Sequence record: PZ386957.1
Direction: 5' to 3' (one strand)
Length of the DNA stretch: 64,000 nucleotides
Origin: a phage
Shown one piece after another: positions 5,588 through 56,178 of this stretch. Numbering within the stretch: the first letter of the stretch is position 1; each line of letters starts with the position of its first letter. The position numbers were made by a program, and so were the translations under genes. The notes beneath the pieces were generated by a model. That model was not told the DNA's origin. It did not search any database and saw only the letters and a program-made list of their open reading frames with translations.

Positions 5588-7153
5588 ATGTTTAATAGAT
5601 TAAAGATGCTTGCGCGTTGGGCGGATTTCGACAACGACAAATACGAAGAACAAATTAAATCAAAAGCGGAATCTATCGCTGCACCAAATAACAGTGATGG
5701 TGCTACGGAAGTAGAAATAAATGATAATACACCCGCTAGTGCATGGAACTCTCTAACACAGCAATTTTACAGCACTGACCAGAAGATTAGCAATACTAAA
5801 CAGCTAATTAATACCTATCGTGGATTAATGAATAATCACGAGGTAGAAAATGCCGTTCAAAATATTGTTAATGATGCAATTGTATTCGAGGAAGGGCACG
5901 ATGTTGTATCTCTGAATCTGGAGTCTACCGGATTTAGTGAATCAGTTAAAGAGCGTATTCATGAAGAATTTAAAGATCTCTTAAACACTATCCAGTTTGA
6001 TAAACGCGGTCAGGATATGTTCCGGCGCTGGTATGTTGATTCCCGTATTTTCTTCCATAAAATCATCGGAAAGAGTCCGAAAGATGGGATTGTGGAATTG
6101 CGACAACTCGATCCGCGTAATCTGGAATATGTTCGCGAGATTATCACAGAAGATACGCCGGAAGGTAAAATTTATAAAGCAACGAAAGAATATTTCATTT
6201 ACACCGTAGGAAGTGGTTCTTATTGCGCGGGAGGACAAGTATTCTCTCCGAATAGTCGCGTTAAAATTCCACGTAGTGCTATTACATATGCGCATAGCGG
6301 CTTGATGGATTGTGACGATAAATATATCATTGGTTATTTGCATCGGGCGGTTAAACCTGCTAACCAGCTTAAATTACTGGAAGATGCTATGGTTGTTTTC
6401 CGTATTACCCGCGCGCCGGAACGTAGAGTATTCTTTATTGATACCGGAAACATGAACAACCGCAAGGCCGCACAGCACATGAACTCGGTGGCACAGTCTT
6501 TTAAAAACCGGGTTGTTTATGATGCGTCTACGGGCAAATTAAAGAATCAGCAAGCCAATATTTCTATGACCGAGGATTATTGGTTACAGCGTCGTGATGG
6601 TAAGGCTATTACCGATGTGACTACATTACCTGGTGCATCCGGTATGAGTGATATCGATGACGTTCGCTATTTTAACCGTAAACTTTATGAAGCGTTGCGC
6701 GTGCCACTGTCACGTAGTAATCTCTCAGAAGCAAATATGGTTATTGGCGGTGACGGTAATGAAATTACCCGCGATGAGCTAGAATTTTCTAAATTCATTC
6801 GTACTCTACAGACTCAATTTTCGGAAGTCCTGCGCGATCCTCTTAAATACAATCTGATTCTCAAAAATGTTATCACAGAAGACGATTGGGATCGTGAAAT
6901 AAATAATATCAAGGTTGTTTTCCATCGGGACTCTTATTATACAGAAGTTAAAGACGCGGAAATTTTAGAACGTCGAATCAACCTGATCGAGCGTATCGCC
7001 CCTTACATTGGTAAATATTTCTCAAACCAGACAGTAATGCGCGATATTCTGAAATATACCGATGACCAGATGGACACCGAGAAGAAACAGATCGAAGAAG
7101 AAGCGAACGATCCGCGCTTTAAACAAACTCCCGATGAAATAGAGGATTTTTAA
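5588..7153 (+). CDS. 20: Portal vertex protein
   Basis: 521 aa; strong collinearity with T4 gp20 (FRRWYVDSRIFFHKII, GYLHRAVKPANQLKLLEDA, MTEDYWLQRRDGKA). Confidence 0.95.
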   Translation: MFNRLKMLARWADFDNDKYEEQIKSKAESIAAPNNSDGATEVEINDNTPASAWNSLTQQFYSTDQKISNTKQLINTYRGLMNNHEVENAVQNIVNDAIVFEEGHDVVSLNLESTGFSESVKERIHEEFKDLLNTIQFDKRGQDMFRRWYVDSRIFFHKIIGKSPKDGIVELRQLDPRNLEYVREIITEDTPEGKIYKATKEYFIYTVGSGSYCAGGQVFSPNSRVKIPRSAITYAHSGLMDCDDKYIIGYLHRAVKPANQLKLLEDAMVVFRITRAPERRVFFIDTGNMNNRKAAQHMNSVAQSFKNRVVYDASTGKLKNQQANISMTEDYWLQRRDGKAITDVTTLPGASGMSDIDDVRYFNRKLYEALRVPLSRSNLSEANMVIGGDGNEITRDELEFSKFIRTLQTQFSEVLRDPLKYNLILKNVITEDDWDREINNIKVVFHRDSYYTEVKDAEILERRINLIERIAPYIGKYFSNQTVMRDILKYTDDQMDTEKKQIEEEANDPRFKQTPDEIEDF

Positions 7154-41166: not shown

Positions 41167-41445
41167 TTATAAAATAATTTTTTGATATTTTTCTATGATG
41201 TTTGTGTAGGTCACGTCAACCGCTAGCACCGTTGCTTCGAATCCACCGTTTAACCAATGGCTATGATCATGGTCGTGAAAGAAACCTAGACCAGTACGAA
41301 GACCTTCTTTATATTCTGCGCGTACATTCAGTTTGTCGTCGATAAACAGATAAAACCATGAATTTTTACTAGGATTGATGATACAACCTTTCAGATTAGG
41401 GAGAATATCACGACTAAGAATAAACTTATCACCTACTTTGAACAT
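41167..41445 (-). CDS. HxHW-motif family protein, paralog 2
   Basis: 92 aa from ATG at 41445 (GTGAGGA RBS); FYLFIDDKL...HDHDHSHW...VLAVDV. Confidence 0.7.
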   Translation of the reverse strand: MFKVGDKFILSRDILPNLKGCIINPSKNSWFYLFIDDKLNVRAEYKEGLRTGLGFFHDHDHSHWLNGGFEATVLAVDVTYTNIIEKYQKIIL

Positions 41446-41449
41446 AATA

Positions 41450-41770
41450 TTAGTCCTCACTTATAAGGTCAAACCAATTGTTTTTCGCATAATGCTTAAT
41501 GCGTGCTTGATCTGCTTCCGATGGTGATAGATTCCATGCAACCACTACAACTTCTGACGCATCGTCATCCGTTTCTGATACCCAATGATTGTGATTCATA
41601 CAGTTATTTGCTATCGAGTGAGCAAATGATTTCATCACTGGAGACGTATAATCATAGTAACGGATTTTCAGATTTTCATCAACGTACAAATAGATCGTAT
41701 AAGGTTTATATTCAGTAACCAGTAACAGACAGTTACGCAATTCTGGGAAAATATTTTTAGTTAATTTCAT
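41450..41770 (-). CDS. HxHW-motif family protein, paralog 3
   Basis: 106 aa; IYLYVDENL...MNHNHW...VVVAWN. Confidence 0.65.
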   Translation of the reverse strand: MKLTKNIFPELRNCLLLVTEYKPYTIYLYVDENLKIRYYDYTSPVMKSFAHSIANNCMNHNHWVSETDDDASEVVVVAWNLSPSEADQARIKHYAKNNWFDLISED

Positions 41771-41972
41771 ATTCTAGTTCTCCGTAATACACGGTAATCC
41801 ATTTTTCTTCATACTTTGTATCTTTCCAACACACAATCCCGTTTACTGTGCAATCTTTGGAATTGACGAATGATTCATATTGTTCTGCATCTTCCATCAT
41901 TGCATGAGCGGTCTTTTCATCGAATATATCGCAGATCGCTTTATATGCTCGATAATCTTTAAATTTGCTCAT
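41757..41972 (-). CDS. Small protein, tandem paralog a (MSKFKDY...)
   Basis: 71 aa from ATG at 41972; about 50% identical to the adjacent 41975-42184 product. Confidence 0.6.
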   Translation of the reverse strand: MSKFKDYRAYKAICDIFDEKTAHAMMEDAEQYESFVNSKDCTVNGIVCWKDTKYEEKWITVYYGELEYEIN

Positions 41973-41974
41973 AA

Positions 41975-42184
41975 TTAAGACCACTCAAGAGTTTTTGAAA
42001 ACACATCTATCCATTGTTGAGTATATGCGGTTTCTTTCCATGATACAATACCAGTCGAATAATGGTTTTTGTTTCCAGAAAAGGACGGGCATTTTGAGGC
42101 ATCTTCCATCATCTTTTCGGCGAACTCTGGTTCGTATACTCGCAAGATCTGTTGATATGCTTTATAATCTTTAAATTTGCTCAT
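41975..42184 (-). CDS. Small protein, tandem paralog b (MSKFKDY...)
   Basis: 69 aa; shares MSKFKDYxAY...MMEDA...GIVxWKxTxY with the neighbour. Confidence 0.6.
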   Translation of the reverse strand: MSKFKDYKAYQQILRVYEPEFAEKMMEDASKCPSFSGNKNHYSTGIVSWKETAYTQQWIDVFSKTLEWS

Positions 42185-42449
42185 AATTGTTAACTACCTT
42201 ATCAGCTTCTTTTATTGTTTTTACATCAACTGCGATAATCCGTAAAGGTTCGTCGAAGGTCCACCAATGATCGTGAATATCGGCTTGTGATTTATCACCA
42301 AAGGAATCACGAATATCATTTTTACATTTATAGCCAATGTGACCTTCATAGTCAACATAAAGGTAATTATCGAAAATCGGCGTTTTTAAGATCATACCGA
42401 AAAATCTTTCTTTGTGTGTCTTATCCAGTGTTGCAGTAATTCTCATCAT
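42171..42449 (-). CDS. HxHW-motif family protein, paralog 4
   Basis: 92 aa; YLYVDYEG...IHDHWW...IIAVDV; AGAGGAA RBS. Confidence 0.7.
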   Translation of the reverse strand: MMRITATLDKTHKERFFGMILKTPIFDNYLYVDYEGHIGYKCKNDIRDSFGDKSQADIHDHWWTFDEPLRIIAVDVKTIKEADKVVNNYEQI

Positions 42450-42943: not shown

Positions 42944-43252
42944 TTATTCTTCATCTTCAACTTTATCTTTATATGCGTATTTCATAAATTTGTCTGCTAC
43001 TTTGTCGGCCTTTTCTGGTTTGACGTCTGACGCCAGGACAATGGCTAGATCGGTTTCGTCGTTCCCACCATACCAGTGATTATGTGTGTCGTTTTCATCA
43101 ATATAGAATTTATCACCTTCGTAAGTTCGAGCAAATACATCTAAATTCCCATCGATGTAAAAGATCCAATCTTCGTAAAGAATAACCGTATTAGCAAGGT
43201 TCTTGTTGCCTTCAACGAAAGGTTCGGTTACAAACAAATTGGTACGTTCCAT
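42944..43252 (-). CDS. HxHW-motif family protein, paralog 5
   Basis: 102 aa; IFYIDGNL...THNHW...AIVLASDV; GAGGA RBS. Confidence 0.7.
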   Translation of the reverse strand: MERTNLFVTEPFVEGNKNLANTVILYEDWIFYIDGNLDVFARTYEGDKFYIDENDTHNHWYGGNDETDLAIVLASDVKPEKADKVADKFMKYAYKDKVEDEE

Positions 43253-52851: not shown

Positions 52852-54008
52852 AGATATTTCCCGAATCGGTTGTAGTCGTCGTCTGTTAAATCGGTATTAA
52901 CCTGAGATACCAGATACATAATCTCTACTTCTTGCGCCGCGTTTTGAACTTCGTCAGAGTTTAACCACTTACGCATCCACGGTAAAGGATGACGACGAAC
53001 ACTAAACGGGCTTTTCAGTCCGGCAGCACGCATACGGGAATCTGCCAGGTATTCTACATAGGTTTTCAGAATTTCCGGTGACAGGTTAGGAATTGCCCCC
53101 ATTGCGAATAGGTGGTCTACCCATTCTTTTTCTTGCTCGACAACATCCAGAAAGATTTTCGTTGCTTCGTCTTCAAGTTCTTCCGCAATCTGTTTCCACT
53201 CATCACCGTCAGCCCCCGTTTGCCATTGACGAATAATGTATTGTGTGCCTTTTAAGTGAAGTTGTTCATCACGCGCAATAAATTTCATGATCTTCGCGTT
53301 ACCTTCCAGTAAACCACGTTCGGCAAAGCTGAAAGTACATGCAAAGGACACATAAAAACGGATTGCTTCCAAAGCATTAACGCAGTGTGCACACAGATAA
53401 ATCGACGCCATCAGATCTCGTTTTGTATCTTCAAAAAATCTTCTTGCATCATCTAATGCTGTCTGGTCGTCTCGGTCTTCCCAATAGCGGAGATCTTCTT
53501 TTGCATTCTCATACTTACGAATCCAATAAAGAACATCATCATAATATTGCCCGATAGATTCCGCTCGCTTCATGATAGCAGGGTTATCGATGATCTGGTC
53601 GAACTCACTAGCCGGATCAATAAAACAGTTACGCATAATGTGAGTATAACTGCGGCTATGAATCGTTTCGCTGAATGTCCATGTTTGCAACCATGTATCA
53701 AGAGTCGGATCAGATACAATTGGACCAAATACACGGGCAGGCGCTCTGCCTTGAATAGAATCAAGCAAAGTCTGATAACGTAAGTTCTCGGTGAAGAAAC
53801 GCTTTTCAACATCGCTCATATTCAGATATTGAATGCGGTCAGTCGCTAGCGAGATCTCTTCTGGACGCCAGAAAAATGACAACTGTTTTTCGATCAACTC
53901 TTCAAATACTTGATGACGCTGGATATCATAACGAGCAATCCCTAAATCACTACCAAAAAACATCGGTTCAGTCATAATATCAACATGTTCACGATTAAAT
54001 ACGCTCAT
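52848..54008 (-). CDS. nrdB: Ribonucleotide reductase small subunit
   Basis: 386 aa from ATG at 54008; size and position match T4 NrdB; helical ferritin-like di-iron protein. Confidence 0.85.
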   Translation of the reverse strand: MSVFNREHVDIMTEPMFFGSDLGIARYDIQRHQVFEELIEKQLSFFWRPEEISLATDRIQYLNMSDVEKRFFTENLRYQTLLDSIQGRAPARVFGPIVSDPTLDTWLQTWTFSETIHSRSYTHIMRNCFIDPASEFDQIIDNPAIMKRAESIGQYYDDVLYWIRKYENAKEDLRYWEDRDDQTALDDARRFFEDTKRDLMASIYLCAHCVNALEAIRFYVSFACTFSFAERGLLEGNAKIMKFIARDEQLHLKGTQYIIRQWQTGADGDEWKQIAEELEDEATKIFLDVVEQEKEWVDHLFAMGAIPNLSPEILKTYVEYLADSRMRAAGLKSPFSVRRHPLPWMRKWLNSDEVQNAAQEVEIMYLVSQVNTDLTDDDYNRFGKYL

Positions 54009-54010
54009 CA

Positions 54011-54550
54011 CTATTCTCCATCAATTTTGTTTATATTGTAACCTACGTTGCCTTTTTCTATTTCTTTCAACGCAACTGAATTAAACGCTCTTGCCGCATC
54101 TTGTTCGCTATCAAATCTCCCTATATGAACACTCTTTCCTTGTATATTAATATGAACTAGCCATCTATTTGTGTACTTACACCAACTTACCCCGTTATAT
54201 TTTGATGACGCACCTTTAAATTTAGTCCTGTTTCTATTATTGACAGAATAATCAGTGCCTCGTAAATTTTCTATATGATTGTTCAGCTTGTTTCGGTCGA
54301 TATGGTCTATAACTTTAGGCTTATGTCCATGAAACATATGATAAATCACATGATGTATTAACTTCTTTCTATTGTCTACTGTTAGTTGAAGATATCCTCC
54401 GTTATGTGGACTTCCAACCTCATCACCAACTTTAACTTTATTGCTTGTTGAAACCTTTCTGAAAAGTTTACCGTCTTCGTATTTAAATAGATAGTGATAC
54501 CTTTCGTAAAGTATTCGGTCCTCTTCCGTATAATGTATTACCTCATACAT
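54011..54550 (-). CDS. HNH endonuclease with AP2-type DNA-binding domain (mobE-like position)
   Basis: 179 aa; HHVIYHMFHG...VIDHIDRNKLNNHIENLR (HNH) followed by YNGVSWCKYTNRWLVHINIQGKSVHIGRFDSEQDAARAF (AP2-like). Confidence 0.7.
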   Translation of the reverse strand: MYEVIHYTEEDRILYERYHYLFKYEDGKLFRKVSTSNKVKVGDEVGSPHNGGYLQLTVDNRKKLIHHVIYHMFHGHKPKVIDHIDRNKLNNHIENLRGTDYSVNNRNRTKFKGASSKYNGVSWCKYTNRWLVHINIQGKSVHIGRFDSEQDAARAFNSVALKEIEKGNVGYNINKIDGE

Positions 54551-54560
54551 AATATTTTAC

Positions 54561-54728
54561 TCACTTTTTAACACAAAAGAACTTAGTATTTCTGTTTATT
54601 TCGTTATCCTGTTGCAATTCCTGCACGGCTTCAAAACAACTTTGATGTGATGAAAACTCCACGCTGGTAACAGTTCCTTTATTATATGAGCCTACGCTAA
54701 CGGAAAGCAATAACCATATTGTAGCCAT
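54561..54728 (-). CDS. Small hydrophobic-N-terminus peptide, tandem paralog B (55 aa)
   Basis: MATIWLLLSVSVGSYNKG...; start overlaps the stop of paralog A (TAATG). Confidence 0.45.
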   Translation of the reverse strand: MATIWLLLSVSVGSYNKGTVTSVEFSSHQSCFEAVQELQQDNEINRNTKFFCVKK

Positions 54729-54901
54729 TAGTTCACCTTCTGCTTTTCAACACAGTACAGATTCATAAAGCGTTTATTGTCTTCGCGGATAATCTCGCGA
54801 GCTTTAACGCAATCCTGCTTTGTTGCAAATTCAATGCTTGACATATTTCCGTAATTATACATTGAATTGCTGATTGCAATCAATAACCATACAGTAGCCA
54901 T
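54728..54901 (-). CDS. Small hydrophobic-N-terminus peptide, tandem paralog A (57 aa)
   Basis: MATVWLLIAISNSMYNYG...; start overlaps upstream stop. Confidence 0.45.
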   Translation of the reverse strand: MATVWLLIAISNSMYNYGNMSSIEFATKQDCVKAREIIREDNKRFMNLYCVEKQKVN

Positions 54902-55068
54902 TATTCGACAACCTCAAAGCATTTATCATCAGGTAGAATAGCCCATTCTACGCCGTATTCATCCTCAACGTAGTAGCAAGCCCCATCATGTCGAGCATCA
55001 TATACATCACCGACAACAAAGCTATCAGCTAGCTCAAAATCTACAGCAACACATTTTAATTTGATCAT
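54901..55068 (-). CDS. Small protein (55 aa)
   Basis: ATG at 55068 with GTGAGGA RBS downstream of promoter 55100-55128. Confidence 0.5.
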   Translation of the reverse strand: MIKLKCVAVDFELADSFVVGDVYDARHDGACYYVEDEYGVEWAILPDDKCFEVVE

Positions 55069-55099
55069 AATAAAATCCTCACTTGTTTTTGATGGTTGA

Positions 55100-55128
55100 A
55101 TTATAGCGGGGATTTCTCCCCGCGTCAA
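55100..55128 (-). promoter_or_regulatory. Promoter/stem-loop cassette TTGACG-17-TATAAT whose spacer is the hairpin GCGGGGAGAAATCCCCGC
   Basis: The hairpin plus flanking A/T runs also reads as a terminator for the upstream nrdA fragment. Confidence 0.65.
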
Positions 55129-55140
55129 CACTTATTTTTT

Positions 55141-56178
55141 TTACAGTTTGCAAGATGAACATTCGCTAGCGTCTTCCGTACCATCAGCACCATCACGAAC
55201 GTTAGCGTAATACAGTGTCTTGAGGCCGTAATATTGAGCAAACAGCATATCATCTAACACATCAACAATATCGACTTTACCAGTCTTATAAGTGCTTGGA
55301 TCGTAGGATGTATTGGAACTAATCGCCTGGTCTACAAACTTCTGCATGATCGCTGCCAGTGTCAGATAAGGCTTGTTACCTTTCTTGATCAGTGTCCAAA
55401 GCAGGTCAATAACATCAGCATTATTCTCTACGTTCGGAATAACCTGATTAAATTGTCCTTCCTTTGATCCTTTAACCGATACAATCCCGCGAGGCGGTTC
55501 AATACCATTTGTGCTGTTAGATACCTGAGAAGACGACTCACAAGGCATCAGCGCCGAAAGCGTACTGTTACGAATGCCATATTTTTTCAGGTCTTCGCGC
55601 AGTTCTTCCCAATCCATCTCATACACCGGATCAACCAGTTCATCTACTGTCTTTTTGTACCAGTCGATAGGCAGTTCACCGCGTCCATAACGTGTTTCGT
55701 GCATCAGTTCGCAAGCACCCTTCTCTTTAGCCAGTTGCACACTAGCCTTAATCAGAGCATATTGCAAGCGTTCAAACGTTTTATGCGTAAACTCGTTAGC
55801 GTCTTCATATGTGAAGAAATTATCCGCCAAATATGATGCAAAGTTAGTCACACCAACACCCAGAGAGCGACGTTTTTTGGCTGTCAGAGCTTGTTCTACA
55901 GGATAATCCTGATAATCTAACAGGTTGTCAAGTGCACGCACCATAACCATAGCAATGCGTTCTACTTCTTCCATGTTTTCGATATCGAAATTACCTAAAA
56001 CATAGGCAGCTAAGGTGCATAGTCCCACCTCGGCGTCTTCTTTCCCCATCGGAGAAGTGGGGAGTGTAATTTCCATGCAGTTATGTACTAAAATATCATT
56101 AGCGAAGAAAGAATGTGTATCTTCTACGGTAATGTCGTAAACCGGAATTTCAATCTCAATATATTCAATCTCAACCAT
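55141..56178 (-). CDS. nrdA: nrdA C-terminal fragment: split-intein C-half fused to NrdA C-terminal part (from catalytic Cys)
   Basis: 345 aa; first 33 aa MVEIEYIEIEIPVYDITVEDTHSFFANDILVHN are intein blocks F/G, followed by CMEITLPTSP...LCTLAA (compare E. coli NrdA SNLCLEIALPT...ALCTL). Confidence 0.85.
   Translation of the reverse strand: MVEIEYIEIEIPVYDITVEDTHSFFANDILVHNCMEITLPTSPMGKEDAEVGLCTLAAYVLGNFDIENMEEVERIAMVMVRALDNLLDYQDYPVEQALTAKKRRSLGVGVTNFASYLADNFFTYEDANEFTHKTFERLQYALIKASVQLAKEKGACELMHETRYGRGELPIDWYKKTVDELVDPVYEMDWEELREDLKKYGIRNSTLSALMPCESSSQVSNSTNGIEPPRGIVSVKGSKEGQFNQVIPNVENNADVIDLLWTLIKKGNKPYLTLAAIMQKFVDQAISSNTSYDPSTYKTGKVDIVDVLDDMLFAQYYGLKTLYYANVRDGADGTEDASECSSCKL
56080..56178 (-). 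mobile_element. Split intein C-terminal half (IntC, 33 aa)
   Basis: Ends FFANDILVHN followed by Cys, as in known phage-type split inteins. Confidence 0.8.

Follow-up and report, generated by a model that had tools for sequence, protein, structure and literature searches.

Two small tandem phrog_5579 genes in the nrdA-nrdB interval of an RB49-like phage

The closest described relatives of the genes that we discuss here are RB49p232 and RB49p231 of phage RB49 (NP_891803 and NP_891802), which belong to family phrog_5579 and lie between nrdA and nrdB. The order of genes between nrdA and nrdB is also known for T4, from the T4 map. The T4 interval holds small early open reading frames (ORFs), nrdA.1 and nrdA.2, together with an HNH homing endonuclease gene, mobE (PMC2790892). 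The stretch analysed here, 64,000 nucleotides (nt) of phage DNA from record PZ386957.1 that we refer to as the window, has a pair of small ORFs in the same kind of genomic niche. These are orfA (54728..54901, minus strand, 57 amino acids (aa)) and orfB (54561..54728, minus strand, 55 aa), which are of the same family and at the same nrdA-nrdB position as the RB49 genes, and the orfA protein is identical to an RB49 protein. Phages of the T4 genus gave no sequence similarity to orfA or orfB in tblastn searches, in which the family was found, among cultured phages, to be nearly confined to Krischvirus, with matches otherwise only in two or three unrelated phages. All 59 phage records that match positions 53900-55300 (megablast, 90-99% identity) are Krischvirus, and the window is from a Krischvirus, an RB49-like T4-type coliphage.

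Our reading is that orfA and orfB are genuine coupled genes and ancient paralogs, and that their products have a soluble fold and would act as an early cytoplasmic modulator that binds another protein. Taken as one statement we consider this somewhat likelier to be right than wrong, and the confidence that we attach to any specific role is much lower. Databases already list the two genes, in more than 50 genomes under the label hypothetical protein and in PHROG as a family, and the finding is a genuine but ordinary one, in which annotation is tidied more than a discovery is made. Two ORFs that a filter on ORF length had passed over, each being of less than 60 aa, prove to be true conserved genes. 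Their products, which had been called hydrophobic peptides, are now described as a small beta-beta-alpha-beta domain that is probably soluble, and the uncharacterised phrog_5579 gains a sequence signature and a confident fold model.

The order on the minus strand is fractured nrdA, a promoter-like site, orfC, orfA, orfB, an HNH-AP2 homing endonuclease gene and nrdB, and beyond nrdB is a gene that relatives annotate as polynucleotide kinase/phosphatase. A reading of the window made from sequence only, with no database searches (the sequence-only reading), had reported two adjacent ORFs of about 55 aa with overlapping TAATG stop and start codons, placed between nrdA and the HNH-AP2 gene. The ORFs are present as placed, on the minus strand, and the position is also right, the flanks being the C-terminal fragment of nrdA (55141..56178, minus strand) on the upstream side and the HNH-AP2 gene (54011..54550, minus strand), which is a neighbour outside the paralog pair. 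The TAATG is the stop codon of orfA overlapping the start codon of orfB, and the same TAATG overlap joins orfC to orfA. The first gene of this three-gene block, orfC (54901..55068, minus strand, 55 aa, starting MIKLKC), is unrelated to orfA and orfB; it matches phrog_16302 (E 3.6e-40) and has a weak match to DUF7244 that is below the cut-off. In other loci that we compared, orfC is at L015 734-901, L005 2334-2501 and L021 1036-1201.

In the relatives the three small genes have identical lengths (168, 174 and 168 nt) and the same overlaps as in the window, and the annotations of RB49, ECD7, the Makalu phages, Brandy, JK32, PHB13 and others give all three as hypothetical proteins, with orfA and orfB annotated in about 55 Krischvirus genomes. 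The orfA protein, MATVWLLIAISNSMYNYGNMSSIEFATKQDCVKAREIIREDNKRFMNLYCVEKQKVN, begins MATVWLLIAISNSMYNYG; it is an exact match to RB49 AAQ15456.1, its sequence is present on 186 contigs, and it is 98-100% identical across 53 Krischvirus records. The orfB protein, MATIWLLLSVSVGSYNKGTVTSVEFSSHQSCFEAVQELQQDNEINRNTKFFCVKK, begins MATIWLLLSVSVGSYNKG; it is an exact match to WWT36901.1 of UPWr_E1, its sequence is present on 22 contigs, and its homologs are 84-96% identical. The downstream copy is thus the more variable of the two, with 48 distinct members in 90% clusters as against 14 for orfA, and it is kept in every Krischvirus examined, including those that have no orfA.

Selection was compared over 13-15 Krischvirus sequences. 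For orfA there are 11 haplotypes but only 5 protein variants, with 3, 1 and 10 variable sites at the first, second and third codon positions and a dN/dS (ratio of nonsynonymous to synonymous rates) of 0.059. In the case of orfB there are 14 haplotypes and 14 protein variants, variable sites of 10, 5 and 21 and a dN/dS of 0.229, and the figures for orfC are 12 haplotypes, 9 protein variants, variable sites of 6, 4 and 11 and a dN/dS of 0.253. Both orfA and orfB are under purifying selection. The sequence-only reading had named a frame not conserved in relatives as evidence that would count against it, and the frame is conserved in all of the relatives examined. We take orfA and orfB to be genuine protein-coding genes.

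Each of the three ORFs is preceded at normal distance by a Shine-Dalgarno motif (GAGGA, GAGG and AAGGTGA). Directly after the nrdA stop codon, behind an A-tract, is a promoter-like site of sigma-70 or T4-early type (55100..55128, minus strand), which is TTGACG-17-TATAAT and matches the consensus at 11 of 12 positions. The 17-nt spacer of this site is filled by a GC-rich hairpin of 18 nt, GCGGGGAGAAATCCCCGC (55106..55123, minus strand), which overlaps the last base of the -35 hexamer. The annotation of Makalu_003 has a terminator at the equivalent place, and because the annotators of the Makalu phages label this same hairpin as the nrdA terminator, a terminator and a promoter appear to be superimposed after nrdA. 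The hairpin is without a T-run and was not called in a scan for intrinsic terminators, and the region is without a match to any Rfam family. Together orfC, orfA and orfB form a TAATG-coupled block, each gene with its own Shine-Dalgarno site, that is directly downstream of a strong early-type promoter-like site and upstream of nrdB.

The orfA and orfB proteins have 40% identity and 71% positives (BLASTP pairwise, E 7e-17), which is far beyond chance, and the description of them as tandem paralogs is well founded. The further claim, that the duplication is a recent one, does not hold. A recent duplication would have high nucleotide identity and unsaturated synonymous sites, whereas nucleotide identity between the two genes is 59% overall and only 49% at third codon positions, a level that amounts to saturation, and 53 of the 56 Krischvirus records matched gave a match to both copies. 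In a rough neighbour-joining tree, made with only 55 columns, orfA and orfB are not sisters, orfA being closest to protein P0018 and a Koutsourovirus protein, and orfB to protein P0015. We therefore regard the pair as anciently diverged tandem paralogs. The two copies may well be sub-functionalised, with orfA nearly frozen and orfB present in every relative examined yet diversifying.

With regard to the family, the phrog_5579 hidden Markov model (HMM) matches orfB with E 7.6e-25, over all of its 52 positions (1-52), and orfA with E 6.8e-24, and it is matched by all 51 of the family members that we aligned. On full-length match, protein length and signature we assign both proteins to phrog_5579. 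Neither has a match to any Pfam or NCBIfam family, the named NCBIfam families included, or to any PADLOC anti-phage defence component at E<=1, and a Pfam scan of the 51 members gave only scattered single matches, all with E>0.01. A search of 1.84 billion cluster representatives, made at a threshold of E<=1e-3 with a profile of orfA, orfB and their near relatives, gave 50 matches, of which 47 are real and are 42-113 aa long, mostly 50-65 aa. The remaining three, P0016, P0038 and P0053, had 4-9 matching stretches and were considered as tandem-domain relatives; they are long, repetitive and of low complexity, and were rejected as spurious.

Conservation was assessed on the 48 sequences left once near-duplicates had been removed, and gives the signature [TV]-[VI]-W-L-L-[IL]-x-x-S-x-G-x-Y-N-x-G, followed by E-F-x-[ST]-x-x-x-C and then by C-[VI]. 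Both cysteines are found in all members that cover those columns, 46 of the 48 have exactly two cysteines, and the spacing between them is 19-21 positions. W5, L7, S11, G13, N16, G18 and F25 are conserved at 80-96%. Information content is highest in the N-terminal strand, at 2.69 bits per column, followed by the S-x-G-x-Y-N-x-G loop at 2.40, and is about 1.5 in the C-terminal half.

The contexts in which we examined members of the family are all phage or phage-like, and every metagenomic member examined is on a phage-like contig, in a setting of early or accessory type. Enterobacter phage SDFMU_EhYP (Koutsourovirus, Autographiviridae) has an unannotated member of 56 aa, starting MNTVWLLIAISSGSYNRGNVSSVEF (L004 2644-2814), in an apparently gene-free gap between the genes for an AAA family ATPase and DNA polymerase, and Achromobacter phage CF418P1 has one family gene. 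In an unrelated metagenomic phage, L007, there is a member between the genes for thymidylate synthase and dihydrofolate reductase (1671-1853) and, following a glutaredoxin gene, a second, dispersed and divergent member that has neither the Trp nor the YNxG motif (6182-6358); this nucleotide-metabolism cluster also contains ribonucleotide reductase and HNH genes. Elsewhere there are members in replication modules with AAA_24, DUF669, helicase and Prim-Pol (L010 and L025), adjoining Dam methylases (L024 and L027), near an anti-repressor and Lar (L023), after three glycosyltransferases (L008) and near LysM and NAD-salvage genes (L006). The gene next to the L008 member was considered as a possible paralog of it and is not one. 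An HMM scan of 28 sequences found tandem pairs only in Krischvirus, and the window holds only the two copies. We describe phrog_5579 as a family of proteins of 50-65 aa that, as far as these sequences go, is so far found only in phage and phage-like sequence.

The sequence-only reading had described the two products as small hydrophobic peptides, and this has to be corrected. The grand average of hydropathy is negative for both (-0.28 for orfA and -0.17 for orfB) and only about the first 11 residues are hydrophobic. The maximum mean Kyte-Doolittle value over 19 residues is 0.61 for orfA and 0.85 for orfB, so neither has the value of at least 1.6 that is the threshold for a membrane span, and this value is reached in only 1 of the 48 family members. 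AlphaFold2 gave a mediocre model of orfB with a shallow alignment (mean predicted local distance difference test score, pLDDT, 68), and for orfA with 28 diverse sequences a confident one (pLDDT 91.3, predicted template modelling (TM) score 0.73). The orfA model has strands at residues 3-11, 20-25 and 46-54 and a helix at residues 28-42, and the mean pLDDT of residues 1-10 is 91. The prediction is thus of a compact domain, soluble and with the order beta1-beta2-alpha-beta3, with the hydrophobic N-terminus modelled as a strand of a globular domain and not as a membrane span or signal peptide. A Foldseek search of BFVD with this model found dozens of uncharacterised phage proteins in the 50-65 aa range that share the fold (TM 0.7-0.85), and the fold comparisons gave no lead to a function.

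One of the BFVD proteins that superposes on the orfA model is named as a DUF1482 family protein (TM 0.73). DUF1482 (PF07358), which includes the E. coli prophage protein YebW and phage relatives, is of similar size (about 60 aa) and shares with orfA and orfB the order of its elements: a hydrophobic N-terminal strand, a loop containing Gly, a second strand, a helix with [ST]-x-x-x-C, and a Cys in the last strand. YebW itself is similar in layout to orfA and orfB, and its sequence scores 122.8 bits as DUF1482 (gathering threshold 25 bits). Homology to DUF1482 was considered and is not supported by sequence: orfA and orfB have no match at E<=1, only 1 of the 51 members has one, at E 0.11, and hhalign against YebW gives a probability of 1%. 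The link is thus a fold-level resemblance only. The same can be said of the periplasmic domain of MzrA (PDB 4pwu) and of ferredoxin-like and split beta-alpha-beta domains (PII/SbtB, ClpS and cyclase cores), for which the matches have 4-13% sequence identity, are to parts of larger domains and involve unrelated functions. No solved structure is related to the orfA/orfB family by sequence.

We now turn to what the proteins might do. The domain probably dimerises, as a homodimer or, where both genes exist, as an orfA-orfB heterodimer, or else docks on a partner protein, because beta1 is hydrophobic on both faces and there is one helix to cover a three-stranded sheet, so that the free face needs burial. 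The partners of a heterodimer would be made stoichiometrically through translational coupling. The S-x-G-x-Y-N-x-G hairpin loop is a likely contact site, and is the best candidate for one because it is conserved far beyond the needs of a loop. The most likely role would be that of a modulator in the cytoplasm, early and dispensable, with a protein of the host or of the phage as its binding partner and of the host takeover or counter-defence type. This is suggested by the early-type signals, by the dispensability of orfA, which is deleted in phages G37-3 and FL20, by the fast change in orfB, and by the accessory neighbourhoods in other phages, with Dam methylase, Lar and anti-repressor genes among the neighbours as well as genes for replication and nucleotide metabolism. 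If the family has a specific target, in the host or related to ribonucleotide reductase, it would add one more phage mini-protein effector, and the small size and the invariant Cys pair would make the idea easy to test.

Several points weigh against our reading. The promoter-like site is a consensus match only, and promoter-like sites across the region are no more numerous than in shuffled sequence. Dimerisation, and with it the heterodimer, is purely what we infer. Literature searches on DUF1482, on Krischvirus transcriptomics and on the RB49 nrdA/nrdB region turned up nothing on these ORFs. Finally, mini-proteins of the cytoplasm do not usually have an invariant pair of cysteines, and the pair would be a better fit to an exported protein with a disulfide bond or to a metal site.

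This last point leads to the alternative that the proteins are exported or membrane-anchored. The N-terminal M-x-T-V-W-L-L-I-A-I-S-x-G would then be a very short Sec signal peptide or anchor, with cleavage after S-x-G, and the remaining 42 or so residues would fold in the periplasm with a Cys31-Cys50/52 disulfide and might there exclude superinfecting phage or modulate the envelope, as other small periplasmic proteins of T-even phages do. The Cys pair favours this, and both the length of the hydrophobic region and the S-x-G motif are compatible with a Sec-type signal peptide. However the hydrophobic run is only 8-11 residues, with the low Kyte-Doolittle values given above for the two proteins and for the family, and K or R residues, expected in the n-region, are rare, being present before the Trp in 8 of the 48 members and absent from the other 40. 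The segment is also unlike signal peptides in being the most conserved part of the family, with its almost invariant Trp, and AlphaFold2 includes it in the domain as a strand with pLDDT of about 91. We think it unlikely that the proteins are exported or membrane-anchored.

A broader proposal is that phrog_5579, perhaps joined by DUF1482-like proteins that share its fold, is a widespread and unrecognised class of phage mini-proteins in which the Cys pair and the S-x-G-x-Y-N-x-G loop make up a specific functional site, and of which the Krischvirus copies are specialised. The site could be a dimer-bridged metal or redox centre or a loop for binding a host protein, and the two copies could pair in a heterodimer or have a target each, with a part in counter-defence or in controlling ribonucleotide reductase and deoxynucleotide supply. 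We offer the proposal only tentatively, and it is probably wrong as it stands.

It is also conceivable that orfA and orfB are accessory factors of phage deoxynucleotide synthesis, with the four cysteines of a dimer holding a metal or Fe-S centre or a redox-active pair, which would serve ribonucleotide reductase in the manner of YfaE or of NrdH/glutaredoxin, or else that they tether enzymes of the deoxynucleotide synthetase complex. In Krischvirus the genes are in the nrdA-nrdB interval and would share a transcript with nrdB, both cysteines are invariant, and L007 has one member between the thymidylate synthase and dihydrofolate reductase genes with ribonucleotide reductase, glutaredoxin and the second member nearby. 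However the contexts of most other members, such as the Koutsourovirus gene, those in replication modules and those near Dam, Lar or anti-repressor genes, are without nucleotide-metabolism genes, and orfA is dispensable. The proteins also lack the motifs expected. There is no CxxC as in the thioredoxin, glutaredoxin and NrdH redoxins, the cysteines of the family being 19-21 apart, and there are two Cys per chain as against the four-Cys motif of a [2Fe-2S] ferredoxin of the YfaE type, with no match to Fer2 or to any other ferredoxin, thioredoxin or glutaredoxin family of Pfam at E<=1. In T4-type phages this region is also known as a general dumping ground for small ORFs and homing endonucleases (PMC2988022). 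We consider a function in deoxynucleotide synthesis improbable.

The sequence-only reading took the pair to be a recent tandem duplication and a hallmark of a plastic accessory locus, in which case the turnover would be fast, and the copies could be redundant with one on the way out. There are observations in the locus that would fit. The two genes have in common a 35-nt direct repeat, each copy of which covers the start context and 5' end of its gene (54869..54903 for orfA and 54696..54730 for orfB). The repeat is 80% identical between copies, has a spacing of 173 and includes an identical 11-nt segment, TATGGTTATTG. In G37-3 and FL20 the sole remaining gene opens with ATGGCTACTGTATGGTTATTG of orfA and runs on as orfB, and from this hybrid gene we conclude that orfA was removed by recombination inside the 11-nt microhomology. 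In addition the orfA of JEP8 has C31F, at the invariant Cys of the family. Against this are the 40% amino acid and 59% nucleotide identity and the 49% identity at third positions, the presence of both copies in 53 of the 56 genomes matched with each under purifying selection, and the tree, in which each copy has nearer relatives outside the pair, so that a recent origin is very improbable. What we have instead is an example of tandem paralogs in which a conserved 5' end has allowed loss of a copy through microhomology recombination. As for the claim that the locus is plastic, it stands in part: there has been deletion of orfA, decay of orfC, insertion of endonucleases and rapid change at the orfB position, and the locus is somewhat plastic, while the recent duplication that was offered as its hallmark is not there.

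That the two ORFs are chance ORFs or non-coding spacer between nrdA and nrdB, as their length of less than 60 aa might suggest, can be dismissed given the conserved frame with dN/dS of 0.06-0.23, the profile homologs in unrelated phages, the confident AlphaFold2 fold, the Shine-Dalgarno sites and the lack of an Rfam match.

We return to the old pair of genuine genes that we prefer, and to what surrounds it. The third gene of the block, orfC, is intact in most Krischviruses, but in JEP8 and G37-3 its frame is interrupted by stop codons, and the annotation of FL20 divides it into two short fragments, so that both of the phages without orfA also have a broken orfC. On the other side the HNH-AP2 gene has a match to Pfam HNH_3 above the curated cut-off, a match to AP2 with E 3.1e-7 and 31.0 bits that is below the 33.3-bit cut-off, and belongs to phrog_99. 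It is present at the position between orfB and nrdB in only G2494, G5211 and G37-3 of the 59 matching records. At the same junction there are different endonuclease genes in SSG23 (675 nt, L019 1284-1958) and phiS (648 nt, L020 1311-1958), and in RB49 the spacer between orfB and nrdB is 15 nt. With three different homing endonuclease genes at one spacer we conclude that this is an insertion hot spot, comparable to that of mobE between nrdA and nrdB in T4.

Two further observations concern orfB and its neighbourhood. In phage phiS (L020 901-1241) orfA is 98.9% identical in nucleotides to that of the window and orfB 86.3%, with a sharp change at the boundary. The divergence of the phiS orfB could be due to co-conversion with the adjoining, different endonuclease gene from a divergent donor. 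The other is in a short metagenomic Krischvirus-like contig (L026 1-718), in which NrdB is 92% identical to that of the window and the protein at the orfB position, P0015, only 49% identical. The ORF that precedes P0015 ends in DLFHDEVEEVK, has the TAATG overlap, and does not resemble orfA.

The nrdA gene upstream of the block (55141-58788, minus strand) is a fractured gene. The N-terminal fragment (57181..58788, minus strand) ends in the N-half of an intein, starting at KQSNL/CLSGETMV, and the C-terminal fragment (55141..56178, minus strand) opens with the C-half, ending at VHN/CMEITLPT, with a free-standing HNH endonuclease gene (56171..57145, minus strand) between them. The 59 Krischvirus records have a contiguous nrdA (with KQSNLCCEIALPT at this point), and nothing in them matches the insert at the nucleotide level. 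Yersinia phage TG1 (Tegunavirus) has the same nrdA architecture, with an endonuclease that is 48% identical. In the fractured NrdA loci described by Dassa et al (PMC2677866) the insertion point is directly N-terminal to the thiyl-radical Cys, and the insertion site in the window is the same. The endonuclease is of a different type, being HNH in the window and GIY-YIG or Vsr-like in the loci of that study.

The window has a second tandem pair, of genes for proteins starting MSKFKDY, at 41757-42184, and its presence had been correctly reported from the sequence. The copies are at 41975..42184 (minus strand, 69 aa) and 41757..41972 (minus strand, 71 aa from its ATG), both are in phrog_8471, and they are 46% identical (E 2e-21). 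Like the pair at the nrd locus, this is an old rather than a recent duplication. Around it there are four ORFs on the minus strand (41167..41460, 41450..41770, 42171..42449 and 42944..43252) that appear to share a motif with YLYVD, two residues, L, one residue, I, three residues and HDHW, in that order, and these seem to be several copies of one paralog family on either side of the MSKFKDY pair.

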